Under the pieces are notes generated by a model. The model was not told the DNA's origin. It was given only the letters and a program-made list of their open reading frames with translations, and searched no databases. DNA of 53,330 nt from a virus (taxonomy: Duplodnaviria; Caudoviricetes): positions 1 to 53,330 of the IMG/VR virus record IMGVR_UViG_3300037010_000252; one strand, written 5' to 3'. Shown piece by piece: positions 2,056 to 23,295 of this stretch. Every line of letters begins with the position of its first letter. The first letter of the stretch is position 1. The translations under genes and the position numbers were made by a program.

Positions 2056-2921
2056 GTAACGAAATTGCAACAAGTAAATCCTCCGTTCCAGCAATGAGCG
2101 AAGCAGAACTGCTGAACGTCCTGCGCAATTCGCTGTATGTCGGAGCGCGTGACGAGTCAATCAAGATGGCGATTGCCTACTGCACCGCCAGTGGGCTTGA
2201 TATTTTCCAAAAGCCTGTCCACATAGTCCCGATGTGGGACGAAAAGACCAAGAGTATGCGCGACGTGGTAATGCCAGGGATCGGCCTATATCGCACACAG
2301 GCGGCTCGTTCCGGCGCGTATGCTGGAGTTACCGAGCCAGAGTTCGGCCCAGACATCACCGAGACATTCCCGGAAGAGAAGGGGTATGAAGGTAAGCGCC
2401 GACCAGAAGTTACTATCACGTACCCGGAATATTGTCGCGTAATCGTCAAGCGCCTACTTCCCAATGGGCAAATTGCAGAGTTCGCAGCTACCGAACGCTG
2501 GAAAGAGAACTATGCCACCTCCGGCAAGGGATCAAAACAGCCCAATTCCATGTGGAAGCGCAGGCCATATGCGCAGCTTGCGAAGTGTGCTGAGGCGCAA
2601 GCACTGCGCAAGGCATTCCCGGAATTTGGATCGCAGCCTACCGCAGACGAAATGGAAGGAAAGGAAATCGACGTTGGCTTCGTCAACCACGAGACCGTGG
2701 AAGTTCGCACCGAACTGCCCGCATACAGCCAAGAACAGATGAACACGAATATTGAGGTATGGCGCTCCGCAATTGCTTCCGGGAGGATTACTCCAGAGCG
2801 TATCGTGGCAATGGTATCTAGCAAATACGTGTTGAGCGATGACCAGATAAAGACGATACACGGCTTGTCTGTCTCAAATGTCGTTGATGCAGAGATAGTG
2901 GATGAGGGGGAACAGAAGTGA
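2052..2921 (+). CDS. bet: phage single-strand annealing recombinase (Bet/RecT family)
   Basis: GLDIFQKPVHIVPM...MPGIGLYR..AARSG and PNSMWKRRPYAQLAKCAEAQALRKAFP motifs. Confidence 0.9.
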   Translation: MSNEIATSKSSVPAMSEAELLNVLRNSLYVGARDESIKMAIAYCTASGLDIFQKPVHIVPMWDEKTKSMRDVVMPGIGLYRTQAARSGAYAGVTEPEFGPDITETFPEEKGYEGKRRPEVTITYPEYCRVIVKRLLPNGQIAEFAATERWKENYATSGKGSKQPNSMWKRRPYAQLAKCAEAQALRKAFPEFGSQPTADEMEGKEIDVGFVNHETVEVRTELPAYSQEQMNTNIEVWRSAIASGRITPERIVAMVSSKYVLSDDQIKTIHGLSVSNVVDAEIVDEGEQK

Positions 2922-4528
2922 ACACTACGGCAAGAAAAGATGATGACTTTGATTTTCGTGTTGTCGATCTGCGTCATGACACAGATATTTATGTTGTCGG
3001 TCTGCGTCAGGGAACAAAAGAGTGGCTTGAGCACAGAGCAAAACATTACAACGCCAGCGATGCTCCTGCTATGTTGGGGTTGTCTCGCTATAAGACACGC
3101 CAGCAATTACTGCGCGAAACAGTTACCGGGGTTGTTCCAGATGTTGACGAGGAAACGCAACGCCGCTTCGATAGAGGCCATGAGCTTGAGGCAATCGCAA
3201 GGCCGTGGGCTGAGGAAATCATAGGCGCAGAACTTTTCCCTGTAGTGCTGTCTGGAAACATTGACGGATTGCCGCTATCAGCTTCGCTTGACGGGCTGAC
3301 AATGCTTGCGGACGTTGCATTCGAGCACAAGACGGGGCGCGCAGACCTTTTGGAAAGCCTGGAGGAAGGAATAATCCCTGACGAATACAAGCCTCAGATG
3401 GAGCAATGTCTTCTTCTGTCTGGCGCAACAAGATGCCTCTTTATGGCATCTAACGGCGACCGCGAAACGATGCGCTATGCTTGGTATGAGCAAGATTCGG
3501 CAGTGCGCAAGAAACTTCTAGCAGGCTGGAAACAGTTTGCCGAAGACCTGGCTAACTATCAGCACGTCGAAGTCATTCAGCCAGCCGTGGCAGATCCTCA
3601 GATGTCTCTTCCGGCAGTATTCGTCAAGGTAAACGGCAGTATTGCGCTGGACGATAACCTGTCCGTGTTTGGAGAAGCCCTAACGGCATACGTTGAGCAG
3701 ATCAACAAGAAACCACAGACTGACCAGGACTTCGTAAACCTTGAGGCCGCCGTCAAGACGCTTAAAAAAGCCGAGGACGCGCTTGATGCCGCAGAGAGTA
3801 GCGCACTCGGGCAGGTGGTCAGCGTCGATGCTATGCGCAGAACTGTTGCGTTGTATCGAGAGATGGCTCGCAATGCTCGTCTGATGATCGAAAAACTTGT
3901 TAAGGCTGAGAAGGAGAACCGTCGAGCAAAGATTATCCTTGATGCGCAAGACGCAATTATGAAACACATAGACCGCTTGAATGAGCGCGTTGGCGGGTGG
4001 ATGCCGAAAACCATTCCATCGTTCGCTGACACAATCAAGGGTCTGAAATCGTTAGATTCAATGCGCGATAAGGTTTCGACCGCGCTTGCCAATGCAAAGA
4101 TTGAGGCTAACGAACTGGCTGACCGCATCGAGTTTAATGACAAGCAGAGAACCGTTGACGGCGTGAACTACAGTTATCTAGTTCCAGACTTCGGGCAAAT
4201 CTGCATCAAGCCGAAAGAGGACTTCGCTGCAATCGTGGCGCAACGCATCGCAGAACATAAAGCTGCCGAAGCCGAGATAATGGCCGCGACAAAGCGAGAA
4301 TCATCAGCAACAGATCAACTGGCGAATGCCAGCGAATCGACGCACGTAGAGCAGAGCGCGACTACGATCCCTAGGGAACCGCTGGATAGCAGACAACCGC
4401 CCAGGATCGACGATGCTCTCATCGACGACTTCCTGTCGGTGCTTGAGATCAGCGCGCGCGAGCGCAATGAGCTTCGCCCGATCCTGGTGAAGTTCGAGAT
4501 TTTCAGAATGACAAGGAATACGAGATAA
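2918..4528 (+). CDS. YqaJ/lambda-exonuclease-like recombination nuclease with coiled-coil extension
   Basis: QGTKEWLEHR...ASDAPAMLG, GHELE, SASLDG, FEHK motifs; follows Bet. Confidence 0.9.
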   Translation: MNTTARKDDDFDFRVVDLRHDTDIYVVGLRQGTKEWLEHRAKHYNASDAPAMLGLSRYKTRQQLLRETVTGVVPDVDEETQRRFDRGHELEAIARPWAEEIIGAELFPVVLSGNIDGLPLSASLDGLTMLADVAFEHKTGRADLLESLEEGIIPDEYKPQMEQCLLLSGATRCLFMASNGDRETMRYAWYEQDSAVRKKLLAGWKQFAEDLANYQHVEVIQPAVADPQMSLPAVFVKVNGSIALDDNLSVFGEALTAYVEQINKKPQTDQDFVNLEAAVKTLKKAEDALDAAESSALGQVVSVDAMRRTVALYREMARNARLMIEKLVKAEKENRRAKIILDAQDAIMKHIDRLNERVGGWMPKTIPSFADTIKGLKSLDSMRDKVSTALANAKIEANELADRIEFNDKQRTVDGVNYSYLVPDFGQICIKPKEDFAAIVAQRIAEHKAAEAEIMAATKRESSATDQLANASESTHVEQSATTIPREPLDSRQPPRIDDALIDDFLSVLEISARERNELRPILVKFEIFRMTRNTR

Positions 4529-6116: not shown

Positions 6117-6980
6117 ATGAATAAGTGGGATCAACGCATGTCGAACTTGGCGAATCTGGTTTCGACATGGAGCAAAGACCCGAGCACTGGAGTAGGGGCC
6201 GTGATCGTTGATGCCAAGAACCGTGTTGTTTCTCTTGGATACAACGGGTTTCCGAGATGCGTGGTCGATTCAGACGAAATGCTGTTCGACCGCGACGAGA
6301 AGCTGCGCCGCACCATCCACGCTGAGGAGAACGCATTGCTGTTCGCCGGACGCTCGGTAGAAGGCTGCACCCTCTACGTGACCCACCCTCCGTGTGCGCG
6401 TTGCGCGGCAAAGATCGTCCAGGCAGGAATTGCCCGCGTGGTTGCGCAAATCCCCGATGAACAGTTCAGTGGCCGGTGGGAGGCGGATATGCGCAGTGCC
6501 TCCGAGATGTTCGCGGAGGCTGGAGTTGTGCTTACGCTAAACACGGACGACTACTCGGAAGCCACGAGCACTGGTGACTACTCGGCTGCTACGAACGCTG
6601 GATATCGGTCGGCTGCCACGACCACCGGAGACCGCTCGGCGGCCACTAACACTGGCTTCTACTCGTTGGCCGTAACAGCGGGCCACTACTCGTTGTCCTT
6701 GAACGCTGGCTACGGCTCGGTGGCTATGGCCGCTGGCCGCTACTCGACGGCTAAGGTGACAAGCGCAGAATCTATAGCGGCATCTCTTGGTGTGGAGGGC
6801 CGTGCCCGCGCCTCAGCAGGTAGCGCTATCGTCCTCTGCTACCGCGACAAAAAAGGCCGCCTGATCCATATTCGAGCCAGCAAGGTGGGAGACAATGGTA
6901 TCAAGGAAGGTGTTTGGTATTCGCTGGACTCCGACGGAGAATTTATCGAAGTGAAATCTGACGAGAGCAAGGAGTGTTAA
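6117..6980 (+). CDS. dCMP deaminase fused to a 9-aa-repeat phage domain
   Basis: SKDPST.VGA, GYNG, HAEENA and PCARC deaminase motifs in the first ~140 aa; then TGDxSAATN-type repeats and an IRASKVG.NGIK...WY.LD..GEF tail. Confidence 0.85.
   Translation: MNKWDQRMSNLANLVSTWSKDPSTGVGAVIVDAKNRVVSLGYNGFPRCVVDSDEMLFDRDEKLRRTIHAEENALLFAGRSVEGCTLYVTHPPCARCAAKIVQAGIARVVAQIPDEQFSGRWEADMRSASEMFAEAGVVLTLNTDDYSEATSTGDYSAATNAGYRSAATTTGDRSAATNTGFYSLAVTAGHYSLSLNAGYGSVAMAAGRYSTAKVTSAESIAASLGVEGRARASAGSAIVLCYRDKKGRLIHIRASKVGDNGIKEGVWYSLDSDGEFIEVKSDESKEC
6544..6760 (+). repeat. degenerate 27-bp tandem repeats (about 8 units) encoding xGxxSxAxx
   Basis: TDDYSEATS/TGDYSAATN/AGYRSAATT/TGDRSAATN/TGFYSLAVT/AGHYSLSLN/AGYGSVAMA/AGRYSTAKV. 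Confidence 0.8.
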
Positions 6981-9981: not shown

Positions 9982-12900
9982 TTATTGATTATGCAAAGAC
10001 AATAGCTCGCCACGCAACTCCTTTGGGGCAGACTTGACAATTCGTTGTTGCCTAGTCTCGGCCATCTTCTTCACTCGCTCCATTACCTGCTTGCTAGTGA
10101 TGGAGATTTTCTTATCAGGGTTATTGGCGTTCCAGTCTGCCAATTCCTGACGTGCCTTTGTGACGGCTTCCTTGTCTCCTGTGAAAATCCCCTGCGCTAT
10201 TGCTCCAGAAATCTCGGACTCTACGTTGCGAACCAGTTGAATGTCCTGCATGTCCATCTGCGCCGTTCGGCTTTCGCGTGCCACGCTGGCTGGCTGGAAG
10301 CCGATCAGTTTAGATGCCGCGTCTAACGTGTCTGTGTTGACAACCTTCTTCCCTGAACTGTCCCGGTACATTCCAGTACTTGCCATGTCTGCTGCTTTCA
10401 GCGCATTGCGCACCGCAAGCGGCATGAACTCGCCATTCAGCGCGTCTTTAATAACTCCACCTACGGGGCCAAGCACATCAAGAACTTCTCCGGCCTTATC
10501 TGTCTTGTTCTTCAACATGATCCCTGTGCCTGGTAGTAGATTGCTCATCCCAAGGCGCGCCGAGAAATCAATCGGGAATCCAGGCAATGCAGACGTGCCA
10601 TGCAAAACAAAATCGGCGCCAGTCTGCCCCAATATCGAGGCAACGAATTTCTCCTTCTCGGCCTTGGTGTTCCACGCATAGCCCATATGCTGCGCAAGGG
10701 TGTCGATCAGGTCGTCTAGGTCGTCAGCGAACGGAAGCCCCTGTAGGCCAGCAGCCAGCACAAGAATGGCCAGCGCAATCGCCTTCTCCTTCTTCGGCAG
10801 CCTGGACAGAAATTCCATGTAGCCGATGCTGTACTGCTTGAATGTGAAAACAAGCGCACCCGCAGCACCACGTGACCAGTTGGAGCGGTTTCCGCGATTG
10901 TAAATTCCCTGGGTTTCGTTTACGGCTTCTTCCGCGAAGGCGAACGGATCGGCCATCTTGTTCTGGCGCGCGATATTGTAGGCCGCGATGAATGTAGAGC
11001 GGCGGTTGAACTGCTCGGCAAGAGAGAACAGAGACCCCCAGGCGAATAGGCCGCGCTTGCTAAGGTCGTCCAGGTTATTTGCCAAATCCCCCTTGACGCC
11101 TAACATGCGCGCCAATGCGCCTATTCCAGAACCACGCTTGAGTGCTTCTGCATGTAGCTGGTGAATCTCCTGAGGGCTGACGACGCCATCTACTTCTGCG
11201 CGCTTTAGGGCCTGCTTCAAGTCAGCGTCGAGAGTATCACCCGCAACGGCCAGTTTCATTGCCTTGGCCATCTCATACCCTGCATTCTTCGAGAACTGAT
11301 GCAGATATGGGTAGCTCATAACAATCGGCTGCGTCAGGTTTACCATTGCCGACGCCACAGATCCACCGATGTACTGCACGAACAAAAGTCCGCGCAGCTT
11401 TGTGGAATCATCTGTTGGGTTGCGCACGAAGTCTATAAGTTTGATTGCATCGTCTTTCACGTCCCCTTTTTCCTTCGGGATCGCTTCTGCAGCTTTATCC
11501 ATCTGTCCGCCGTATGCGTTCGCTGCAGCATGACGCGCGTTCGATGTGATGAAGCTGGCGAGAATGCGCGGAATGTCTTCGCTGAATCCAGCCATACCTT
11601 TGCGCCTGAGTAGTCTCTTCATGGCGCTGCGATTAGACTTCGCCAGTTTGATGTATTGCTGAACAAGTGCCTTGTTCTTAGCACCAATCGCATCTGCAAA
11701 CAATTCCAGCGTGTCCGGGCTGATTCCGTTGAACAGCTTATACGACTCGGAAGACAGCACGCCCTGAGTAAAGGTTGCCCCCGCAAATTCAGGATCGGCC
11801 TTCAGTTCGCGCATTCTGGCGTTTGCTTCTGCTTCGCTCTCGAATAGGCTGAAATAAAGCTCCTTGTCACCTTTGGTGACATAGAGCGTGTACTTGCCGA
11901 AGCGGCTCAATGGTGCGTATCCCTTGGCCTTTAGGTCGGCTACTCGCATTCCCTTGTCCAATACAGCCTTGGCGTCGTCGGACTTGCCGATACTATTTAG
12001 GTGTGCAGCAACCATTATCGCTGACCGACTTGCTGTTTCCGCATTCAGTATATCGTCGCGCAGATGTTCTGCATCTTTGCCCACGTAGCTCAGAATATCG
12101 GTTTTCCCAAGATCATCGAGAGACTTATCCACGGCTGCGCGGAACTGTCTGTAAAGCTCGATCTGGTTTTCGGTCAACTTGAATTTGTTCCGTAGCTCAT
12201 CTGCGCTGTAAACCTTCTCGTCCACAAGCGTTCCAGCGAATATAGGAGCGGAAATCGCCTTGATGTCTGCCTGACTTGGCCGCTTCGACTTCCATAGATC
12301 GCTAATCGACTTCAATTGCGGGATCAGTTTGTCAGCCATATCGGCAGCACTGTTTGCAAACGTAGCCATCCCGGATATGTATGACTGAACAGAGTCGAAC
12401 ACTTTTCGGTAATCAGCGTCAATTTGAGACTTGTGGTACGGTGTTCCGATTGACTTGTGCCACCATCCGTTGAACGTTTTCTGGGTGGTCAATAGGTCTG
12501 TGATACGCTGTGATACGGCAACCTGCATTTCGACCGTTCGGCTAAACATGGGGCTTGTGCTATCTTTAGTGGATGCACGATTCGCCTTATCCTCTTCCGA
12601 TTGAGTCTCTTGGGCCGTCCGAATACCATACCGGCCCGTCAGATCGCCATTACGGTACGCATCTGCAATGCGCTTGGCCTGTTCTGCTTCGGCCTTTAGT
12701 TTTGACTGGTATTCATCAATGGTTGGATGGCCTGCCCAAGTGTCGCCTTGCGGTTTACGCATCGAAGGATTGTCAAGCGTAACAATTCCTTGCTTAGTGC
12801 GCGAATAAGCCTCACCAGGTCGCGCATTGGTGGACTCCTTGCCTCCGTTCTCGATGAATGCCCTGGCGGGAAGGATGTAGTTTGCAATGATGTCGTTATC

Positions 12901-15900
12901 AGTCAGTTTCAGGTTCATGCCTTTGCTACGCAACCACTGCCTGATAGCCGCGATTGCGCGCTTAACGAAGCCAATTTCCGGGCGCGTCTCGGCCATGTTT
13001 ACCAATACTTCCTCGGCGGCTTTCAGTAGGTCGTTCTCATTTTTAGGGTCAAAACCGTATTCCTTGACCTTCGCATCTACTTCGGCGCGGCGCATAGCAA
13101 CAATCTGTCGCAGGATAGAATCTAGCGCATCACCGAACATACCGCGCAAACCTGCGTGACCAAGAACTTCGTGCGCGACTGTCCTGATTACGTCATAGAC
13201 GCTCTTGTGTTGGCTGGCTACGATGTAAACCTTTCCACCCGTAATGAAACCGCGCGGCTCTCCTTTTGCCCCTCTGGCCTTCATTTTTGCGTCTTCGTCG
13301 CGCACGCGCTGCGGAACCTTGGAGTCCTGCATGTCGGATACGACGATGATCTCTGGCGCGTTCCTCCAGTGGGCCGTGATCCAATTTACAATATTTTGCA
13401 CGCGGACGACGCGCTTGACTGTTTCTGCTTCTGTTAGGCCATTAGTGGCGCGCAGGAAATCAACTGAATCACTAGTATTGTCGTCTTGTTTTTCTTCTGC
13501 CCCCCTAAGTTTGGAAAGCAGCTTACTGTATTCGGCTCGTGCTTTTTCCAGCTTTGCAGTATCAGGCCATTCGCCAGGAACCTTTGTTTTATCAATCTCT
13601 TCCTTGGTCTTCTTGGCGCGCTCAAGCTGTGCCATGTTGTAGTCTAGCATGTTGCCTGCGGTAGTCACCAGTGAATCGGCAACCTTGATAACCTGATTGG
13701 CGATCTTCACCGCGTCAGTCGCATTGTCGCCAACATCTATGACCATGTTCAGCGAGTCATTGCCAACGCCAACCACGACATCAAGCATCTTGCCGTTTCT
13801 TGATTTCTGGCCTTCGACGCTGACATCAAGCTCTCCCATCTTGCCGACGTTCTTGATACTGTCTTCGGCCACCGCATCAGCAACTTCCTGTGCGATTGCT
13901 TTTGCTGCAACAGATCTCCTGTTGTAGGTTTTTCCGTTAAATTCAAGCATGAACGGTGAAGCGTCGCCTTTGATGTTTGCGTATGCTTCTGACATCAAAG
14001 CGCGCGATGTGTATTCCTTACCATTCATGACAACAGAGATAGGGGCAGCGCGATCATTCCCGTTCTCGTCTTTCACCTTGGCATTTATCTTTCCCTCAAG
14101 GTATTCACCAGCCTTGTCCGGGTCTGTGTAGGTGGTTCCGTCGATAACAACCTTGAAGTTGTCGCGCTGCTTTTTAACCGCGTTACGGTACGCCTTGGCA
14201 GCTCCATCCATGCGTTTGGACTTCTCAATTTGCTTTGGCAGGCTTGCAAGCTGCTCGTTTACTTTGCGAGCGCGGTTGATGATGTCATTCTTTTGCGCCT
14301 CAAACGACCGCTTGCGCTGCTCTAGCTTCTTGATTTCTGAGCGCATCTGGATTTCCTTGAGCAAATCCATGTTTCCTGTTGCGGCGGCTTGCATTTCCCC
14401 TGCTGACATTTCCATGTCATCAAATGGATTTTCGATTTCTCGGCTCACGTTACGGGTGCGAAGCTGATTAATCATTTTCAGCTTCGCTTCCTGTATCTGC
14501 CACATGCGCAAATCAAGCGTGTCCTGCGTGACGTAGGCAAGAATCTCTACCTCAAATCCATTAAGGGTATCGGACAGCTTGTTTCCTTGACGGATGATGC
14601 GCCCCTCGCGCTGTTCTACGTCGGATGGCTTCCACGGAACATCAAGGTGGTGCAATGCGACAAGTCGTTCTTGTACGTTTGTACCGGCACCCATCTTGGA
14701 GGTTGATCCAATCAATACACGAATCTGCCCACTATTAACCTTTCGGAACAGTGCTGCTTTCTGGTCGTCTGTGTTGGCGTCATGAATGAATGCGATCTCG
14801 GCTTCCGGTATGCCGCGTTCGACAAGGGCCGACCTAAGATCGTCATAGACCGAGAATCCGCGAAGAGCTGCATTGATGGCATCAAGCCAGTCCCTTCCCT
14901 TGGCGTTAAGCTTCTCCTGTGCCGCCTCGCTTGCCTCAACCTTTGCAAGCGCATCCTCATTGCCAACCGCAGCTAGAGACTGCACTTGTTCAGTGTTTCC
15001 AGCATCAATTATGGCGCGCAGTTCCTCGTATTCCTTGATCTCTGCTTTAGCTTGTTTGAGCGGAGTGCCAAGGTCTGAAAAGACAAGTTGTGCCCCCTTA
15101 TTGTCGTCGTACTGCTGGTATCGCTCGAAGATTTCATCGGCAGCACGGTCGATTCTGCCTCCACTCTCGCGCTCGGTGATTTCAGGTCTGACAAGGCGAA
15201 TATCCATCGCCGCCTTGCGCGCGTCTGTCATAATGACAAGTGCATTGTCCTCGCCCTTTTCTGGGCGGCCACCTCTGGCTGCAAGTTCCTTTGCGCGCTT
15301 TGCGATTTCCGCCATGTATTCTGTCTGTGCCTGCGACCTTGTGAGCGCAACGGGCTGACGTTTGCCGTCTTTCAGCTTTGGAAGGGGAAATTCTCGGCCT
15401 CCGTGTTCTTCACGGAATGCAGCCTTGATGTCTTCCATAGTAACCGTATCGGAAACCTGGTCGAACATTTTTAGCAATTCTGTGGTGTTGACGAAGGTGT
15501 TCATTCGGTTAGACGGCTTGTAGCCATCCCCGCCCATATTCTGCATGAATACCTGCTGCACGGACGCGAAAGTGTTTGCCCAGGAGTCAAACGAATCGAA
15601 ACCTGCCTCCTTCATTTGGTCTGGCATCAGGTAGCGCATCATGTGGTACATCTCTGCCAGCGAGTTTGAAACTGGTGTTCCAGTCGCAAATACAAGACCT
15701 TGACCGCGCCCGTTCTTCTCGAAAATCTGATTAGCCTTGATATACATATCATAGGCACGCTGGCTTCCTGCCGGGTCTCCCAATCCCTGAACATTCTGCA
15801 TTTTGGTCGAGAACATTAGGTTCTTGAACAGGTGTGCCTCATCAACGAACAGTTGATCTACGCCAATCTGTCCGAAGTCAAGCAAATCATCTGTCGCCTT

Positions 15901-18900
15901 ATCGCGCAACTTTTCGATGCGGTTTTCCAGCCTTTCGATCAACCCCTGCAACTGTTTAACCGTGCGCTTTTTCTGTTTGGATTCTCCGTCTCCTTCTTTA
16001 ACAGAATTGATTGTCTTGACGATGTTCTTTATCTGTTCCTCGTTGAACCTGGCCTCGAACTCGGGGGACGGCTTGATGAACCCGAACGAAGAGTGGGCGA
16101 TGATTACCGCATCCCAATCACCAGTTGCAATTTTTGCCAGGAATCTGCGACGATTAAGTTTTGAGAAGTCCTTCTTTGTTGCAGTAAGGATGTTTGCGCC
16201 AGGGTATAGCCTATAGAAGTCTGCCGCCCACTGCTTGACTAGATGGTTTGGCACCACGATCATTGGCTTTTTGGCGAGGCCTGTGCGCTTTAGCTCCATA
16301 GCTGCGGCGATAATTGTGTATGTCTTGCCAGCGCCAACGACATGATCCAGAAGAACTGTGCGATCCTGGACGATGCGCGCGATAGCATTGCGCTGGTGAC
16401 GGCGGAATTTGATAATGCTGTCAGGAACCTTTCCAGGAAAGCGCATCCACGATCCGTCATACTTGCGCGTCACATAGTTGTTATTGGTATCGTTGTACGC
16501 GCGCACAAGAATTTCTGAGCGTTCCGGATCTGAGAACAGCCAATCCTGAAAGCGGTCACGTATCTCTTGCGCCTTTGTGTTAGCGTCTTCTGTTTCCTTG
16601 ACAAGTGTGTAAGTCCTACCATCGAAGTCCTTGCCACTCACCTTGATGGTGCGATTATTAAGGATTGCCGATAGCAGCATGTCTCCGCTATATTCCTTGG
16701 TTCCCCAAGTGTTTGTCGCCTTTATTTCTGATCCAGGTTGAATCGAAACTGAATATGAGCTATTTGCGGGGATATAAGTAATGCTGGCCGTGGTTCCTTC
16801 GCCAAACAGTTCTTTTGCGAAGTCCTCATAAACACTCTCTGGAACCCACGGTGAGCCGACGCGGGCCGCAATCTCGTGCGCCCCAACATCTTCTGGGATA
16901 ACTTCTTCCAATGCCTGGACATTGTTCATCATTCCAGCAGCTTTCGCCTGCTTTAGCTTGTCGCGGACGTTTCCTGACAAGTAAGCATCGCGCAGCATGT
17001 ATTCATTGGTAGCAGGATCAATGAACAAAAGTGGCTTGTCTCCTGTGGAGAGCTTTTCCAGAACTTCGTCGGCCTGCATTCCGAGAAGTTTTCCGATATA
17101 TTCGGCATCTATCTTCCCTCGTTCGGCCATCGAAATAGCTATAGCGTCGGCGGGGCTGTCTGCCTTTTCAACAATCTTGCGCGCATCTACCACACGCTGA
17201 TTGAAGATCGGTGCTTTCTTGGCTCTAGACTTGAAGGCAGGTATTCCGAGCGACTTTGCGGCCGCATTTCCCATGCCGCGCGTGTAGTCATACTCAAGAG
17301 AAGCCAATAGAGGATAATCTGGGTCATCTCCGAATACGCGAGATGTGCTCATGTCATTCAGCAACCCATGCTTCTTGGTGTATGAGTCATATTGCTCGTT
17401 AAGTCTATCGCGTAGCGCGTTCATGGATTCGTCACCACGAATCTCGGCGGCCAACAATTTACGCAGAGTGTCACGCATGGCAACCAATTGCTTAATGCGA
17501 TCGAACCCAGACTCACCAAGTTTGGTTTTTTCAGTCCATTGGGTGTCAGGTGTAATCTGTCTGCTGTATGTCTCACCGTCAAGACCGCGAACACGAATTA
17601 ACAGCTTGTCACCATCACTATAGAATCCGCCGTCAAGCACATCTAGCTTACCTAGAGCGGCAGACTCAGCATTGACGGCGTTATCGGTATTCGTTATCGA
17701 GCGATCCGTATAGACGTTGGCCGGTAGATTTGCTACAGCTTCTCGCAGAATCTCCAGCGTATCTTGTCCATCGCGTGCAATGAGTGCAGGCATACCCGGC
17801 CCATACATGGTTCCGTATGCGCCGTACTTGCCAAGCATCATGTGCTCATTGTCTGCGAAGTACTGATTGAGAGGGACGCGGTTCCCTTCGTCGTCGATAG
17901 CAACTACAACATCCATCCACCGTTTCGCGTCTTCTCTGGTAGCTTTCGTACCCCATTCTGATTCTGGCAGTTTTTGCAAGAAGATCAGGTCGGTAGTGAC
18001 TTCTGTGTTTGCGTTCTTGCTGAAAGCGTTATTTGGCAGCCGGATAGCGCCCAATAGCTTTGCGCGGTCAGAAATGTACCGGCGAGCAGCATCACCTTTG
18101 GAGTCTAGGAAATTGCTTGTGACAACCTGGGCAAGAATCCCTCCTTCGCGTAGCATGTCCACTGCCTTGGCAAAGAAGTAGTTATGTAGAGACAGCCCAG
18201 ACAGGTGCTTGCGACCTGATTTATCAACCTGCTTATCAGATGCGAAGGGAGGATTTCCAACTGCAACGTCATAGTAGTTGTCGCTTCCCTGAAATTCCGT
18301 GAAGTCAGCTTGCTGAACGTTCTGCTTAGGGTATAGCTGCTTTGCTATCTTGACGGCAAACGGCTCGCGTTCAATGGCGGTTACACGTCCGCCACTACGC
18401 ATGTCAATAGGCATCAAGCCGATGAAGTTTCCGACTCCAGCGCCAGCCTCAAGAACACGTCCACCATTGAAACCCATGCTGCGAAGTGCGGCATAGATAC
18501 CGTCAACAATGACTTCGCGCGATGTGTAGTGGGCATAGCGTGTTGAGCGTGCGGCGTCTGCGAACTCCTGTTCAGACATCAGGCTGCGTAGTTCGGCGTA
18601 TTCCTTTGCCCAATCTTTATTGGACTCATCAAACGCCTGCGGGATTCCACCCCATCCAACGTACTTCGCAAGTACGCGCTGCTCATCAGGGGTCGCAGGA
18701 CGGTTTTCCTCGTCCAGTTTTTTCAGAAGTCGGATTGCCGCGACATTGTTCTTGAACTTGGTTTTTTGCCCACCCTCGCCAAGCCCTAGATCATCATTAA
18801 TAATGAAGTCGTCAGGCTTAAACTGTGGAGGATCGGTCCTCGGCGCGTTTGGTGCCTCGTCTTCCTGGTTTACTGCTCCGGATCCCCCGGAATTGTCACC

Positions 18901-21900
18901 GATGCCATTGTCTTGTTGTAGTCTGCCATTGCTGCGTGGCCTAGGCTCTGTTCCATTTCTTCGTCCTGCCCCGTCTCCGGCGCTGGAAACAGGTAGTCCT
19001 CCCGCGTCATTTCCCACGCTTCCGTCTGGCTGAACCCCTCGCGCACCAGGTTCTGCATTTCCTCTGCCGTTGCCTGTGCTGCTTCCATCAGGTTTTTCTG
19101 CAGCGTTCCCTCCTTCACCATGCGCGCCACCATTTCTGGAAGGTACTCCTTCCAGTGTTCTAGTGCCTGCCTCATCCAGTTTTCGTACTGCATTACCGTC
19201 ACCCTCTTGAGGTTTGTTTATAGATGATGTGGCTGCGGTGTCAACTGGCGGCTTCCATTTGGTGAAGCGGTATTTTGCATCGCTCTCGATGCTGTCTAGC
19301 GCCTCATGCTTTGACCATCCACCTTTCGGCCCGGCTCCACCATTGGTGATGGTTGCGCCTGATCCATCGTCGCGCGACTTCATCACCCATCCGTTGTCGG
19401 TTTTCTCTATCCATACGGTACGGCCATCGACGCCAGCATAGTCGAAATGCGCCTTGTATCCAGCATCGACCGCACCTATCAATTCGTCTAGCGTGTTTGG
19501 ATACTTGGTTTCCACAGCATCCTTTATATGCTCTCTCAGCACGGAAGCCGCGCGCGGGAACAATTCAGCAAACGCATTGAACGGCTCAACATTTCCTCTC
19601 TTGATTGCTTCGACAATGGCGTCTTCCGCATCGAATATGCTGGTACGCATCTTGCGAAGGTCGGACTCAAGTTGAGTTACTTCTGCCTTAAGCGCCGTTT
19701 TTTCAGCCAACAGCATGGGTTCATTGAGTTTATTTCTGACGCGGCGGATCGCGTCTTCCTTGCGCTGCATGGTATATTGCAGCGCATCTCCTATTTCACC
19801 CGGTATTGAAACGGTTCCGGCTTTCGCGGGAACTTTCTCTACTTTGACCGGCTCCTCCTCAGCAATACCTGCCGCCTTAGCTTTGGTGTCCTCCTTGGCC
19901 GAAAGGCCGTTGATGTCGAATCGCTCAACATCGTCCGCGCTGCTCATTTCCTTCTGAAACGCTGTGGCGCGCGGGTCGTACTTGACACCCATGTACCACG
20001 ATTTCAGGTACGGTTTCACGGCGTCACCAAGGTCTGCAATCATTGCCTTGGCGTAGGCAACAAAGGTGCGCGCACCCTTTTCAATGTGATAGCCCGCCAA
20101 AGTAATACCGGCCTGCATAACTTCCGGGTCGATGCCGCTGTTAAGCTGCCCGGACAGTTTCTTTTTAAGAAGCGCACGCGCTGCTGCTGCTGCATCCTCT
20201 GTAAATATAGTGTTCTTAGACACCTTTGGATGGTCGAGAAGATCGGACTGGTTGTGGTTGGCATCTGCCGCACGATCTGATCCAGTCAAGGTGAAGCTGT
20301 TGCGCTCCGCGTCGGCGCGCGCCTTGGCATCTGCTTCTGCCTCTGCCTTTGCTTTGTCCGATTCGGCCTTTCTATCTGCCTCGGACTTGGCTTTTAGTTC
20401 TTCTGGCGTCTGCCGATTTAGCGCGAAGTCTTCGGTTTGAGAGGATGTAGTAGGCTGATTGCCTACGCCTTCCTCAGAAGCTCCGCTTTCTTGCGACGTA
20501 TAACCGACAGCCGTCTCTTTAGTAGCGCCAGTTGTAGTACCTTCTTGCGCTCCCTTGGTGTCAGTTCCTTTAGCCGATTCACTATGTTGTCCGGTTGATT
20601 CATTGATTTCGTCCTCGCTAAATCCGAGCGCACGCATGATCTCGGCTTCACTCGTGCTCTCCTTGAAGTCAGGAATATCGTCCTCTTCGTCGAATGTCAT
20701 GCCTTCTAGGTTGGTTTCACTGGCGATTTCCTCGGCCAACGTTTCTGCATCGGATGGCAGTTCTGCCTCAATCTCCGCTTCCTGTTTGGCAAGTTTCTGT
20801 TCTCTTGCAACAAGCTCGTTGTAGTGCTCACGGTCGGCCGCAGACATAACCGAGTTTTTATTCAGCGCCTCCCGTACCAAGTCGCGCGCAGCCTGAACAC
20901 CGCCGTCAACGTCATTGTATTCAGCGTCGGTAATGTATCCTGCCTCGTGTAACTTTCTGGCAACCAGATCAAGGGCGTTTCCATCTTTTCGGAAAAGACC
21001 AGGGGCCATGCGGACGGCACCGATCCCCTTCTCTCCGGTGATGTCGCTGGCTTCCTGAATCTTGATGCCGCCAATCTTCTTTATGGTGTCGATGAACTTC
21101 TTGCGAGATGACTCAGCAAATTCGTCGCTGGTCGTGGCGACATCTTTCTTCGATTTTTCCTTGCTGCCGGATGCAGGAATAATGCCTTTCTCTCCAGCGT
21201 AAATCCTTTGTTTGCTAGACAGCGCCCCGGCATCCTTAATGGCTTTGCTGACCGTTGCGAAGTCTGAACTAGCGACAGGGATGTTTTCTCCGGTCTCGAA
21301 GTTTTGAGCCGGATACTCTCCAATGTAAACGACGCCATTTCGGACGGTGACTGGTTCTGTGCTTTTCGGCGTGGTTCCGACTCGCGCAATAACCTGGTTC
21401 GCACCAGCATCAGTAGTATTGCTTACCTGCCGCGTTTTCCCTTGGCTGGATGCATTGGCTTCTGGACTTTTGTCGCCTGCATTGGTTTCTGTGCTTTTGT
21501 TGGTTGCATGGGTTTCTTGGCTTTGTCCGCCTGGTTGAACTCCCGCGCCACCGACTGCGGGACTCCCGCTTCCTTGGCGAATTTCTTGTTGTGCGCTGCT
21601 GCCTGCATTAAGCGTGCTTGTGCCGGGGACTTGCTTGGCATTTTCTACTCCTTGTGGTTGGTTGAAATGATTGCTGGTTGGCTCGGTGGTTACATTCGAG
21701 TCGGCCACCCCAACCGTTCCAGAAGACTTATCCGCCGTGCCGCCTGGTACAGAGATTCCGGTAGCTCCACTTGCTCCCACGGGTCTGCCAGCATCGCTGT
21801 TTTGTGCAGCAACTCCGCCTCCTGGTAGCTGATTACCTGCGCGTTCAGGGCTTTGCGAAGCCAACTCGGAAACTGCTGTGCTTTGATTTCCTGCGCCATT

Positions 21901-23295
21901 GTTTGCTACCTGTTCTGTTTTTGGTTCGTTTGGAATAATTCCTGCAGCAATGGCCGGAGTGCCTTGTTGTTCAGGTGCGGGCGTGCCGGGGAGAGCAATT
22001 CCCAATACACTCTCAGGTGCAATCGCCCCAGAATCAATTCCGGTAGATGCCGCGCGGGCAATCGCCCCGTCACCAAGTTGGGCCTTGGCCGTCTCGACAA
22101 TATTAGGTGCCGCGTCGTTAGATGCCGCGTCATTGGCGGCCATCGTGCGCTTGATTTCAAGGTCGCGCCGCATTACCGCCTGGTTGGCCGCCTGTTGGGC
22201 ATAGAAAGCCTTTATTTCTTCTGGGGTATAAAGTTCTCCGGTATTTGGGTTAGTGTCGGTAGTAGTCGGGGGCGGCAGGACTTCACCTGCATCGGGAACG
22301 ACACGACCGCTGCGCAAGTTTGCACCTGCGCCCATGATTCCGCCTGTAATGCCGCCCTCCACTGCCTGCCGTAAAACGCCTTCTGACAGCGGCTTATTGT
22401 CTGCGTAATTCTGCCACGCCTGTTCCTGCGCCGACTGAGGGACTTCCTGCAATATGCCTTCGCTGGCCGCTCCTCCGGCTATGCGCTTCCACGCTGAAAG
22501 TCCATTTTTTCCACTTTCCAGTGCGGTATTATCCAGCCCCTTAGCCATTGCCGTTTCGGCAGTTTCCAGCCCAAGTTTGTTGGCGATATGCCCGCCCACA
22601 CCTGAAATTAGGGCGTCTATACCGCCAGAAGCAAGTGCTGCGATAGCATTCTTCTGCTGGTCATTGCCCTGGTACTGATCCATTTGCTGCCCGGACTGGA
22701 TTGCGCCTTCGCCAATACCTCCGGCAATTGCCGCCGATTTATCACCGGCTAGACGCTCAAGGTAGCCAGTTCCTGCTTTTCTTGCTGCGGCTCCTGCTGC
22801 GACTTCTGCGGCTGGCGTCAATACACGTCCAGCAGTCATAAGACCACGGCCAATAGCCCCACCAGCCAACATAGAGGGAGCAGACTCAGCCACCTGATTT
22901 ACCGAATACATCGGGTTTTTCAGGTACTCGGCGGCCACATCAAAGCCGTTCTTGTTTTGATCCTTCCATGCGGCGTCGATGTCCTGCTGTGACTTGACGT
23001 ATTCTGGAGAGTATTGCGATTCCAGCTCCTTGGCTTTCTGCCCAGGAGAAAATCCGATTGCCTTGCCAATTTTTTCGGCGGTATCTGATATGGGCCTGCC
23101 CAAGCCGGAAAGCGCAAACGGCAAGTCAGCTATTCCGGTAGCAATTCCAGGAATTTCCGCAATTCCGCGCATGATAGATAGGCCAAGATCAGAATGATTT
23201 GGCTTTCCTACCGGCTTTGCGTTGGAAGATTGGAATAACCCGAGTGGGTCGTTATTCTGCTGCAAAAGACCAAGTGGATCGTTACTGTCAGCCAT
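9982..23295 (-). CDS. giant polyvalent virion/ejection protein, DarB-like: N6-adenine MTase + SF2/SNF2-like helicase + zincin-like peptidase + PLxRFG domain
   Basis: 4437 aa; LEAGAGVGNF (~18424-18457), NPPF (~18244-18255), HVVGAGKT (~16321-16344), DEAH (15832-15843), QREGRIIRQGN, HEVLGH (~13156-13173), PLSRFG (~11896-11913); last large gene of the structural module. Confidence 0.9.
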   Translation of the reverse strand: MADSNDPLGLLQQNNDPLGLFQSSNAKPVGKPNHSDLGLSIMRGIAEIPGIATGIADLPFALSGLGRPISDTAEKIGKAIGFSPGQKAKELESQYSPEYVKSQQDIDAAWKDQNKNGFDVAAEYLKNPMYSVNQVAESAPSMLAGGAIGRGLMTAGRVLTPAAEVAAGAAARKAGTGYLERLAGDKSAAIAGGIGEGAIQSGQQMDQYQGNDQQKNAIAALASGGIDALISGVGGHIANKLGLETAETAMAKGLDNTALESGKNGLSAWKRIAGGAASEGILQEVPQSAQEQAWQNYADNKPLSEGVLRQAVEGGITGGIMGAGANLRSGRVVPDAGEVLPPPTTTDTNPNTGELYTPEEIKAFYAQQAANQAVMRRDLEIKRTMAANDAASNDAAPNIVETAKAQLGDGAIARAASTGIDSGAIAPESVLGIALPGTPAPEQQGTPAIAAGIIPNEPKTEQVANNGAGNQSTAVSELASQSPERAGNQLPGGGVAAQNSDAGRPVGASGATGISVPGGTADKSSGTVGVADSNVTTEPTSNHFNQPQGVENAKQVPGTSTLNAGSSAQQEIRQGSGSPAVGGAGVQPGGQSQETHATNKSTETNAGDKSPEANASSQGKTRQVSNTTDAGANQVIARVGTTPKSTEPVTVRNGVVYIGEYPAQNFETGENIPVASSDFATVSKAIKDAGALSSKQRIYAGEKGIIPASGSKEKSKKDVATTSDEFAESSRKKFIDTIKKIGGIKIQEASDITGEKGIGAVRMAPGLFRKDGNALDLVARKLHEAGYITDAEYNDVDGGVQAARDLVREALNKNSVMSAADREHYNELVAREQKLAKQEAEIEAELPSDAETLAEEIASETNLEGMTFDEEDDIPDFKESTSEAEIMRALGFSEDEINESTGQHSESAKGTDTKGAQEGTTTGATKETAVGYTSQESGASEEGVGNQPTTSSQTEDFALNRQTPEELKAKSEADRKAESDKAKAEAEADAKARADAERNSFTLTGSDRAADANHNQSDLLDHPKVSKNTIFTEDAAAAARALLKKKLSGQLNSGIDPEVMQAGITLAGYHIEKGARTFVAYAKAMIADLGDAVKPYLKSWYMGVKYDPRATAFQKEMSSADDVERFDINGLSAKEDTKAKAAGIAEEEPVKVEKVPAKAGTVSIPGEIGDALQYTMQRKEDAIRRVRNKLNEPMLLAEKTALKAEVTQLESDLRKMRTSIFDAEDAIVEAIKRGNVEPFNAFAELFPRAASVLREHIKDAVETKYPNTLDELIGAVDAGYKAHFDYAGVDGRTVWIEKTDNGWVMKSRDDGSGATITNGGAGPKGGWSKHEALDSIESDAKYRFTKWKPPVDTAATSSINKPQEGDGNAVRKLDEAGTRTLEGVPSRNGGAHGEGGNAAEKPDGSSTGNGRGNAEPGARGVQPDGSVGNDAGGLPVSSAGDGAGRRNGTEPRPRSNGRLQQDNGIGDNSGGSGAVNQEDEAPNAPRTDPPQFKPDDFIINDDLGLGEGGQKTKFKNNVAAIRLLKKLDEENRPATPDEQRVLAKYVGWGGIPQAFDESNKDWAKEYAELRSLMSEQEFADAARSTRYAHYTSREVIVDGIYAALRSMGFNGGRVLEAGAGVGNFIGLMPIDMRSGGRVTAIEREPFAVKIAKQLYPKQNVQQADFTEFQGSDNYYDVAVGNPPFASDKQVDKSGRKHLSGLSLHNYFFAKAVDMLREGGILAQVVTSNFLDSKGDAARRYISDRAKLLGAIRLPNNAFSKNANTEVTTDLIFLQKLPESEWGTKATREDAKRWMDVVVAIDDEGNRVPLNQYFADNEHMMLGKYGAYGTMYGPGMPALIARDGQDTLEILREAVANLPANVYTDRSITNTDNAVNAESAALGKLDVLDGGFYSDGDKLLIRVRGLDGETYSRQITPDTQWTEKTKLGESGFDRIKQLVAMRDTLRKLLAAEIRGDESMNALRDRLNEQYDSYTKKHGLLNDMSTSRVFGDDPDYPLLASLEYDYTRGMGNAAAKSLGIPAFKSRAKKAPIFNQRVVDARKIVEKADSPADAIAISMAERGKIDAEYIGKLLGMQADEVLEKLSTGDKPLLFIDPATNEYMLRDAYLSGNVRDKLKQAKAAGMMNNVQALEEVIPEDVGAHEIAARVGSPWVPESVYEDFAKELFGEGTTASITYIPANSSYSVSIQPGSEIKATNTWGTKEYSGDMLLSAILNNRTIKVSGKDFDGRTYTLVKETEDANTKAQEIRDRFQDWLFSDPERSEILVRAYNDTNNNYVTRKYDGSWMRFPGKVPDSIIKFRRHQRNAIARIVQDRTVLLDHVVGAGKTYTIIAAAMELKRTGLAKKPMIVVPNHLVKQWAADFYRLYPGANILTATKKDFSKLNRRRFLAKIATGDWDAVIIAHSSFGFIKPSPEFEARFNEEQIKNIVKTINSVKEGDGESKQKKRTVKQLQGLIERLENRIEKLRDKATDDLLDFGQIGVDQLFVDEAHLFKNLMFSTKMQNVQGLGDPAGSQRAYDMYIKANQIFEKNGRGQGLVFATGTPVSNSLAEMYHMMRYLMPDQMKEAGFDSFDSWANTFASVQQVFMQNMGGDGYKPSNRMNTFVNTTELLKMFDQVSDTVTMEDIKAAFREEHGGREFPLPKLKDGKRQPVALTRSQAQTEYMAEIAKRAKELAARGGRPEKGEDNALVIMTDARKAAMDIRLVRPEITERESGGRIDRAADEIFERYQQYDDNKGAQLVFSDLGTPLKQAKAEIKEYEELRAIIDAGNTEQVQSLAAVGNEDALAKVEASEAAQEKLNAKGRDWLDAINAALRGFSVYDDLRSALVERGIPEAEIAFIHDANTDDQKAALFRKVNSGQIRVLIGSTSKMGAGTNVQERLVALHHLDVPWKPSDVEQREGRIIRQGNKLSDTLNGFEVEILAYVTQDTLDLRMWQIQEAKLKMINQLRTRNVSREIENPFDDMEMSAGEMQAAATGNMDLLKEIQMRSEIKKLEQRKRSFEAQKNDIINRARKVNEQLASLPKQIEKSKRMDGAAKAYRNAVKKQRDNFKVVIDGTTYTDPDKAGEYLEGKINAKVKDENGNDRAAPISVVMNGKEYTSRALMSEAYANIKGDASPFMLEFNGKTYNRRSVAAKAIAQEVADAVAEDSIKNVGKMGELDVSVEGQKSRNGKMLDVVVGVGNDSLNMVIDVGDNATDAVKIANQVIKVADSLVTTAGNMLDYNMAQLERAKKTKEEIDKTKVPGEWPDTAKLEKARAEYSKLLSKLRGAEEKQDDNTSDSVDFLRATNGLTEAETVKRVVRVQNIVNWITAHWRNAPEIIVVSDMQDSKVPQRVRDEDAKMKARGAKGEPRGFITGGKVYIVASQHKSVYDVIRTVAHEVLGHAGLRGMFGDALDSILRQIVAMRRAEVDAKVKEYGFDPKNENDLLKAAEEVLVNMAETRPEIGFVKRAIAAIRQWLRSKGMNLKLTDNDIIANYILPARAFIENGGKESTNARPGEAYSRTKQGIVTLDNPSMRKPQGDTWAGHPTIDEYQSKLKAEAEQAKRIADAYRNGDLTGRYGIRTAQETQSEEDKANRASTKDSTSPMFSRTVEMQVAVSQRITDLLTTQKTFNGWWHKSIGTPYHKSQIDADYRKVFDSVQSYISGMATFANSAADMADKLIPQLKSISDLWKSKRPSQADIKAISAPIFAGTLVDEKVYSADELRNKFKLTENQIELYRQFRAAVDKSLDDLGKTDILSYVGKDAEHLRDDILNAETASRSAIMVAAHLNSIGKSDDAKAVLDKGMRVADLKAKGYAPLSRFGKYTLYVTKGDKELYFSLFESEAEANARMRELKADPEFAGATFTQGVLSSESYKLFNGISPDTLELFADAIGAKNKALVQQYIKLAKSNRSAMKRLLRRKGMAGFSEDIPRILASFITSNARHAAANAYGGQMDKAAEAIPKEKGDVKDDAIKLIDFVRNPTDDSTKLRGLLFVQYIGGSVASAMVNLTQPIVMSYPYLHQFSKNAGYEMAKAMKLAVAGDTLDADLKQALKRAEVDGVVSPQEIHQLHAEALKRGSGIGALARMLGVKGDLANNLDDLSKRGLFAWGSLFSLAEQFNRRSTFIAAYNIARQNKMADPFAFAEEAVNETQGIYNRGNRSNWSRGAAGALVFTFKQYSIGYMEFLSRLPKKEKAIALAILVLAAGLQGLPFADDLDDLIDTLAQHMGYAWNTKAEKEKFVASILGQTGADFVLHGTSALPGFPIDFSARLGMSNLLPGTGIMLKNKTDKAGEVLDVLGPVGGVIKDALNGEFMPLAVRNALKAADMASTGMYRDSSGKKVVNTDTLDAASKLIGFQPASVARESRTAQMDMQDIQLVRNVESEISGAIAQGIFTGDKEAVTKARQELADWNANNPDKKISITSKQVMERVKKMAETRQQRIVKSAPKELRGELLSLHNQ
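12696..12827 (-). CDS. candidate nested 43-aa gene in the +1 frame of the giant gene (MRDLVRLIRALSKELLRLTILR...)
   Basis: AAGGAG 7 nt before the ATG; same +1 frame as the other nested ORFs; lies in an interdomain linker; no recognisable homology. Confidence 0.35.
   Translation of the reverse strand: MRDLVRLIRALSKELLRLTILRCVNRKATLGQAIQPLMNTSQN
18870..19193 (-). CDS. nested +1-frame gene, TnpV/DUF1896-like helical protein (107 aa)
   Basis: GAGGG 8 nt before ATG 19193; HWKEYLPEMVARMVKEGTLQKNL...AWEMTREDYLFP resembles the TnpV/DUF1896 pattern; host frame is G/N/R low-complexity across it. Confidence 0.75.
   Translation of the reverse strand: MQYENWMRQALEHWKEYLPEMVARMVKEGTLQKNLMEAAQATAEEMQNLVREGFSQTEAWEMTREDYLFPAPETGQDEEMEQSLGHAAMADYNKTMASVTIPGDPEQ
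20463..20603 (-). CDS. nested +1-frame 46-aa basic helical protein (MNQPDNIVNRLKELTPRERKKVLQLALLKRRL...)
   Basis: GAGGA 8 nt before the ATG; amphipathic LTPxER helix; host frame low-complexity over the same span. Confidence 0.55.
   Translation of the reverse strand: MNQPDNIVNRLKELTPRERKKVLQLALLKRRLSVIRRKKAELLRKA
21423..21641 (-). CDS. nested +1-frame 72-aa conserved small phage protein (MPSKSPAQARLMQAAAHNKKFAKEAGVPQSVAREFNQADK)
   Basis: AAGGAG 6 nt before the ATG; I recognise this MPS.S..Q...M.A.AH...FAK..G.PQSV..EF..AD pattern from stand-alone phage genes. Confidence 0.8.
   Translation of the reverse strand: MPSKSPAQARLMQAAAHNKKFAKEAGVPQSVAREFNQADKAKKPMQPTKAQKPMQATKVQKPMHPAKGKRGR
21435..21515 (-). 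repeat. three 27-bp repeats inside the nested 72-aa gene
   Basis: +1 frame KPMQPTKAQ/KPMQATKVQ/KPMHPAKGK; host frame ETHATNKST/ETNAGDKSP/EANASSQGK. Confidence 0.75.
21690..21899 (-). CDS. nested +1-frame 69-aa protein (MAQEIKAQQFPSWLRKALNAQVISYQEAELL...)
   Basis: AGGT 8 nt before the ATG; globular-looking composition; host frame G/A/S low-complexity. Confidence 0.6.
   Translation of the reverse strand: MAQEIKAQQFPSWLRKALNAQVISYQEAELLHKTAMLADPWEQVELPESLYQAARRISLLERLGWPTRM

Follow-up and report, generated by a model that had tools for sequence, protein, structure and literature searches.

Small genes that lie wholly inside a larger gene on the same strand, are read in another frame and possess their own ribosome-binding site are exemplified by Rz1 within Rz of phage lambda and by the overlapping genes of phiX174. 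Both products are made in these systems. The same arrangement was found at the sequence level in the window, the 53,330 bp stretch of DNA under analysis, which is the whole IMG/VR record IMGVR_UViG_3300037010_000252 of a virus of the Caudoviricetes (estimated completeness 87 %): a 72-codon open reading frame (ORF) lies wholly within a giant ORF of 4437 codons on the minus strand (Table 1). The nested ORF is very probably a real, separately expressed protein-coding gene, its function left aside. Unlike Rz1/Rz and phiX174, the embedded gene belongs to a large family that usually stands alone, and it is therefore older than the overlap; the host reading in turn is a disordered linker, with a ratio of nonsynonymous to synonymous substitution rates (dN/dS) above 1, of a 4437-aa polyvalent virion protein. 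The relatives of the nested product, phrog_16759 and phrog_22033 with the protein CBB_322, share its N-terminal domain of about 45 aa, the invariant residues and a basic tail. Proteins of phrog_16759 stand alone and the long proteins of phrog_22033/CBB_322 begin with the domain; the window copy differs in lying within another gene, in a different frame. A further comparison is with the Dar system of phage P1: the small accessories Ulx, Hdf, DdrA and DdrB enter the head in a set order alongside the giant DarB and are ejected together with it and the DNA, according to the accessible part of PMC12810830. The likeness of these accessories to the nested protein is a functional analogy only, and the JC1 paper (PMC9144972) remarks that Bcep22-like phages with DarB-like giants have no known accessories of this sort.

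An earlier note on this DNA had described a nested 72-aa gene behind a strong Shine-Dalgarno sequence; its coordinates, frame and Shine-Dalgarno sequence were confirmed. The product is MPSKSPAQARLMQAAAHNKKFAKEAGVPQSVAREFNQADKAKKPMQPTKAQKPMQATKVQKPMHPAKGKRGR. Its ATG starts at the second base of a giant codon, i.e., in +1 relative to the giant frame, and an in-frame TAG (21645..21647) two codons 5' of the ATG closes the nested frame upstream, so that there is no alternative earlier start. The nested ORF has thus its own start codon and ribosome-binding site. The window has 25 occurrences of the motif AGGAG-N4-9-ATG, where 8.9 would be expected; most head long ORFs, and the motif was present only twice on the giant's strand within the giant gene. 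The second of these occurrences (12825..12839, minus strand) has the same +1 frame and is followed by only about 43 codons; it was rejected as a further nested gene, as this 43-codon stretch came without any supporting evidence. Four codons past the nested stop, the nested frame reopens into an ATG-started ORF of 109 codons (21081..21410, minus strand), which is probably spurious because nothing in Pfam matches it and it runs across a domain of the giant that P0003-P0009 conserve. The giant's own start has a weak Shine-Dalgarno sequence, AAGG. The nested initiation regions fold no better than shuffled sequences (z between +0.07 and +1.72 in seven of eight; +0.56 for the window). Given starts without excess structure, the association of AGGAG-ATG with gene starts and the weaker start of the giant, independent internal initiation is the simplest model. 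Ribosomes would start at the nested AAGGAG-ATG inside the late mRNA of the giant and end at the nested TAA, while for ribosomes coming from the giant ATG this stretch would encode a Gly/Ser/Gln/Thr-rich spacer, past which they continue. The nested gene is the old, constrained reading; the giant's reading of these approximately 220 nt is young, and its only constraint is to remain open. The sequence itself shows both frames and the start site, and comparison with relatives shows selection on either reading; translation is what we infer from them.

The nested arrangement recurs outside the window. In a scan of 255 family loci for a same-strand frame that continues open for 100 aa or more to either side of the small gene, 12 had it: the window, a 62.8-kb contig of a metagenome-assembled genome (MAG) with 42 % GC (L176), and ten viral contigs (L184-L188, L190-L192, L194, L195) from IMG/VR. 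In all 12, the long frame has the same position relative to the nested gene as in the window, and GGAG or GAGG stands 6-12 nt before the nested ATG; the nested gene starts 500 to 863 codons into the open frame. Every nested copy has kept its own stop and a basic tail like that of the stand-alone proteins. Among the best 25 of 149 cultured-phage records, none had the match under a giant gene.

Selection acts on both readings, as measured on the nested clade. Ten distinct nested DNA sequences, compared over 43 codons, gave summed pairwise differences of 449, 342 and 856 at nested codon positions 1, 2 and 3, and the mean amino-acid identity was 0.77 in the nested frame versus 0.46 in the giant frame. 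Four phylogenetically independent nested pairs had 14, 8 and 51 changes at these positions (chi-square p 2e-10). Nei-Gojobori dN/dS values from nine comparisons among the other nested copies were 0.03-0.25 in the nested frame versus 2.2-28 in the giant frame. In alignments extending 750 nt to either side, nucleotide conservation peaked locally at the nested gene (0.82-0.88) in either group of relatives; the flanks reached mostly 0.3-0.7, and less where they failed to align. For the openness of the giant frame, random synonymous codons, taken according to the usage of each giant, replaced those of the nested gene: the giant frame was then free of stops over the nested gene in 0.8 % of the draws in the case of the window, and seven others gave at most 0.1 %. 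Of 177 family loci, only 45 lack stops over the domain in a giant-type frame. The dN/dS values and the openness test together argue that both readings are kept, the nested one for its protein, the giant one merely to stay open.

The earlier note had based its case for nested-frame selection on the three 27-nt repeats in the tail, where Tandem Repeats Finder reported an array at 21451..21533 (period 27, 3.1 copies, 75 % matches). All its identities were exact: units 2 and 3 agree with unit 1 at 7/9 and 5/9 residues in the nested frame, while the giant-frame readings ETHATNKST, ETNAGDKSP and EANASSQGK agree at 5/9 and 2/9. The differences between units at nested codon positions 1, 2 and 3 are [1,1,4], [2,1,6] and [3,1,7]. 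This excess at third positions hints at nested-frame selection, but with three units it is suggestive at best, and the divergence of the units could predate the nesting; as an argument on its own it is weak, and the ten nested copies are far stronger. A KPMQ-type repeat tail is unique to the window copy.

The claim of the earlier note that the N-terminal 40 aa or so match a small basic protein standing alone in virion modules held up as well. Residues 1-50 align with positions 1-50 of the 58 positions of phrog_16759 (E 2.9e-19), and the genes have terminase, portal, tail and virion neighbours; the homologue search returned hundreds of stand-alone copies, mostly in packaging or virion modules. 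Residues 1-45 also match the N-termini of phrog_22033 (845 positions; E 4.8e-14) and phrog_25121 (263 positions), both labelled virion structural protein. A tblastn search of cultured phages found family matches in 148 records. Pattern matches were confirmed as relatives for 592 of 599 in viral contigs, 466 of 599 in metagenome contigs and 11 of 134 in genome contigs, and 681 of 707 candidate proteins with 39-126 aa matched at E <= 1e-3, all of them unnamed. Family members are typically 45-62 aa long. In the long forms (90-847 aa) the domain is always at the extreme N-terminus, often followed by DUF6321, a domain that no paper in our literature search mentions; in the 84 loci listed the match begins at query residue 1 without exception (84/84). 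An alignment of 80 short members (A1) has M1, P2, S3, Q8 and D39 invariant, and the window copy possesses all five. The Lys/Arg-rich C-terminal tail of the short forms is present in the window copy, too (...KPMHPAKGKRGR).

Several points weigh against an active gene in the window. Among public RNA runs, none was listed with the nested stretch; the phage is uncultured. The window is the sole sampled insert-bearing member of its own lineage, and post-nesting selection in that lineage is therefore inferred from the other lineages and from intactness. The window copy differs from its nearest stand-alone relatives at 27-48 of 126 nt with a ratio of nonsynonymous to synonymous differences (pN/pS) of about 0.2, a low value that could predate the nesting. 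The ten nearest giant relatives (P0003-P0012) all lack the shadow peptide as well as an in-frame copy, and a function finds no support from a match in Pfam, NCBIfam, PDB or Foldseek (E <= 0.001). With all nearest giant relatives free of the insert, which is thus probably derived, and with no sister sequence to gauge selection in the window lineage, a stand-alone copy or linker cassette could have been captured by recombination and be a silent relic, its nested frame no longer translated or needed and intact through recency. We consider this improbable: the ORF, the ATG and the consensus Shine-Dalgarno sequence are all intact, the tail bears a lineage-specific 27-nt triplication with differences mainly at nested third positions, and the nearest donor-like copy sampled is already at least 21 % divergent in DNA, yet the protein is 84-86 % identical. 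Selection clearly maintains the arrangement in the other nested lineages.

The nested frame might alternatively be joined to the giant by a -1 slip near its 3' end, which would yield a protein of about 3800 aa with an N-terminal MPSKS domain. The giant frame is -1 relative to the nested frame, a canonical X_XXY_YYZ heptamer, G_GGA_AAA, is located at 21435..21441 (minus strand; nested nt 200-206), 13 nt before the stop, and elsewhere large virion proteins, CBB_322 (847 aa) among them, begin with the domain. The heptamer was nevertheless rejected as a programmed -1 frameshift site and the fusion appears very improbable, since only two of nine nested sequences have a heptamer, at differing places (the two of L186 are in mid-domain, not near the 3' end), seven have none, downstream structure does not exceed that of shuffles (z -0.02 and +0.79), and every nested copy retains its own stop and basic tail. 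An assembly or annotation artefact, with two genes around a normal small gene joined to a giant by an indel error, is conceivable for a metagenome-derived contig but scarcely credible. A second assembly, made from a public run, spans 20900..22200 (1301 nt) unbroken and agrees with the window without a single difference or gap; the run behind it may be the source sample, i.e., possibly the same reads, and hence is not independent data. The giant frame is continuous in eleven other contigs from three collections, and in relatives of the giant a single polypeptide contains both flanking parts.

In P0003 the flanks of the insert align closely; between '...VGVAD.NV' and 'IARVGTTP...' there are about 47 unrelated residues, as against about 100 in the window, which correspond essentially to the Shine-Dalgarno sequence plus the nested gene. 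A search of viral contigs for close relatives of the window giant found none. As the window protein is closer to stand-alone copies (84-86 % identity, L004) than to the other nested copies (58-72 %), the nesting in the window appears to be a separate capture; a quick tree built from 158 domain sequences requires 3 changes of the nested label, 2 of them forced by starred branches. An approximately unbiased test did not reject a single clade of all nested copies (p 0.76, 43 columns). Six nested loci (L176, L186, L187, L190, L191, L194) have a giant-frame motif LGL...L..LD.NNP..H..I in common, about 60-90 aa upstream of the nested gene, and have therefore inherited the nested position; their giants otherwise differ greatly downstream. 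The motif may represent a small domain that moves with the nested gene as a cassette, and a transferable linker cassette would also fit the pattern of nesting. The window and L195 are without the motif, and no giant domain is common to all nested loci. In the giant of L176 (2382 aa), an SLT and an LPD38 domain accompany an N-terminal domain of the window type (27 % identity, E 1e-13).

Table 1 Features of the nested gene and its host gene in the window
Feature	Position	Strand	Remarks
Nested gene	21423..21641	-	ATG start, 72 codons + TAA stop; member of phrog_16759 (MPSKSPAQ... small phage protein family)
Shine-Dalgarno sequence AAGGAG	21648..21653	-	6-nt spacing to the nested ATG
Conserved N-terminal domain, codons 1-43	21513..21641	-	three short helices predicted: 6-17, 19-25, 29-42
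Three 27-nt repeat units	21435..21515	-	KPMQPTKAQ / KPMQATKVQ / KPMHPAKGK in the basic disordered tail
Host gene, giant polyvalent (DarB-like) virion protein, 4437 aa	9982..23295	-	
N-terminal conserved domain of the giant, aa 34-342	22270..23196	-	common to F116-type giants and the giant of G001:C106
Giant-frame linker, aa ~537-635	21391..21687	-	spans the nested gene in a frame offset by one base
Methyltransferase domain of the giant, aa 1606-1751	18043..18480	-	
SNF2/ResIII helicase region of the giant, aa 2295-2904	14584..16413	-	
C-terminal PLxRFG domain of the giant, aa 3792-4427	10015..11922	-	NF032893, E 2.7e-146, 488.8 bits (cut-off 100)

The host gene combines several enzyme domains in the manner of the phage-type polyvalent, DarB-like giants. 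Its N-terminal 300 aa or so and other parts match giants annotated as 'DarB-like antirestriction' or 'PLxRFG domain-containing' from F116-, Bcep22-, PBC5-, Atu_ph08- and Skulduggery-type phages, and relatives of the window giant carry LPD38. It is the last gene of a same-strand late operon with the large terminase, portal, major head protein, head closure and virion/tail genes. Domains, matches and place in the late operon identify it as a polyvalent virion protein of the phage type, as that term is used in PMC5512222. A homologue, gp69 of phage JC1, was detected in virions by mass spectrometry, as stated in the accessible part of PMC9144972. The opposite-strand arm of the window phage encodes a RecE-like exonuclease (2918..4528, plus strand; E 9.8e-150) and a fusion protein (6117..6980, plus strand) in which a dCMP deaminase is linked to a domain of unknown function.

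Outside giants, the small gene is situated among late genes. Upstream neighbours were examined against PHROGs in 138 cases and included 4 large terminases, 1 portal (BUCT555), 1 DarB-like giant (Rhizobium phage RHph_TM3_14A), 9 tail fibre, spike or assembly proteins, 6 virion structural proteins, 18 members of the unknown family phrog_8198 and a few nucleases; the majority had no PHROGs match. On the downstream side 81 of 142 candidates were covered, the 61 omitted being mainly more ORFs of about 350 aa resembling phrog_12985 matches; the 81 covered included terminases (8 small, 4 large), 3 portals, 5 virion proteins of phrog_25516 and 9 phrog_12985 members. Because of these terminase, portal and virion neighbours, the family belongs to the late, head and packaging modules. 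A split ancestor, a non-nested locus with giant-homologous neighbours, was sought by tblastn, and Rhizobium phage RHph_TM3_14A alone qualified: its giant gene stops about 200 nt 5' of the small gene and matches the C-terminus of the window giant (E 3e-12). In the GC-rich loci L004, L009, L016, L017, L024 and L042, the frame of the downstream small terminase stays open backwards across the entire small gene, so that ORF lists show a terminase ORF seemingly containing it; the true terminase start is likely 3' of the small gene. One MAG (G001) has four family copies on four contigs (C133, C111, C38, C106; L178-L181), three in open frames of 172-210 aa, thus long forms, and one being the nested copy of L176; the bin may combine several phages. 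In a 575-aa member (L164:1535-3259) the N-terminal domain is combined with DUF6321 and with a region weakly resembling the SU10 adaptor (25.9 bits, below the cut-off of 27); this member is either a real head-tail adaptor fusion or a read-through.

AlphaFold2, based on an 80-sequence alignment, predicted the core of the nested protein with a local distance difference score (pLDDT) of 90-95 for residues 11-40 (blocks 95, 95, 90) and a disordered basic tail. Pfam had no match for the nested protein nor for the 80 family members, and NCBIfam and a sequence search of the PDB gave none for the nested protein. Foldseek found nothing in the PDB at E <= 0.001; the weak top rows were helix-turn-helix DNA-binding domains with E >= 1.8. 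Matches in BFVD were restricted to family members and DUF6321 proteins. In the ESM Atlas unnamed phage clusters were obtained, with one neighbour cluster (score 0.87) carrying DUF3008 on 10 % of its members. DUF3008 proteins resemble the family as short phage proteins, but membership in DUF3008 (PF11450) was rejected: none of 80 family members reached any DUF3008 model even at E <= 1. CBB_322 (847 aa, locus tag confirmed) begins with the family domain, and the available part of PMC5259590 lists 30 of its peptides in CBB virions. The DNA-condensing internal protein proposed in the earlier note is compatible with the predicted three-helix domain, the basic tail and this virion detection. Fold class, basic tail, the setting in packaging modules, the detection of CBB_322 in virions and the association with ejected giants lead us to a tentative guess, more doubtful than probable: the nested protein may be a DNA binder in the head or packaging context, maybe co-packaged or co-ejected with the giant. 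By analogy, an accessory role in incorporating the giant, as Ulx and Hdf have for P1 DarB in the accessible part of PMC12810830, is a possibility. A still bolder and rather unlikely proposal, again by analogy, would make the small protein a dedicated partner of giant ejected polyvalent proteins, as a co-packaged accessory or a DNA-end or coating factor, with its gene repeatedly engulfed by the giants.

Should this last proposal be true, engulfment would mean that the giant reads through the small gene in the only frame that can stay open. Partner and giant would be made from one mRNA, the old gene doubling as the giant's linker, and the window and the L176-L194 clade would represent at least two independent engulfments. 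The conserved embedded gene is unnoticed in the papers searched. In the accessible part of the polyvalent-protein paper PMC5512222 'overlapping' is absent and 'nested' refers to hairpins only, its supplements, perhaps with domain tables, lying outside the search; a literature search for DarB-like giants with overlapping genes, equally limited to papers without their supplements, returned one unrelated preprint only. Standard gene callers drop ORFs embedded in longer ones, and therefore the nested gene is probably uncalled in most such contigs. The finding is a variant of the embedded-gene theme in which the linker of a giant gene overprints an old gene. Its direction is opposite to usual overprinting: the embedded gene is ancient and widespread, the reading of the long gene a free-running spacer. 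As a natural case of dual coding it is clean, with separable signatures, a low dN/dS in the nested frame versus stop avoidance only in the host frame. The nested gene is a concrete candidate accessory for the DarB-like polyvalent giants of podophages, proteins for which no accessories are known, and a family of hundreds beside terminase, portal and virion genes merits a function assignment.

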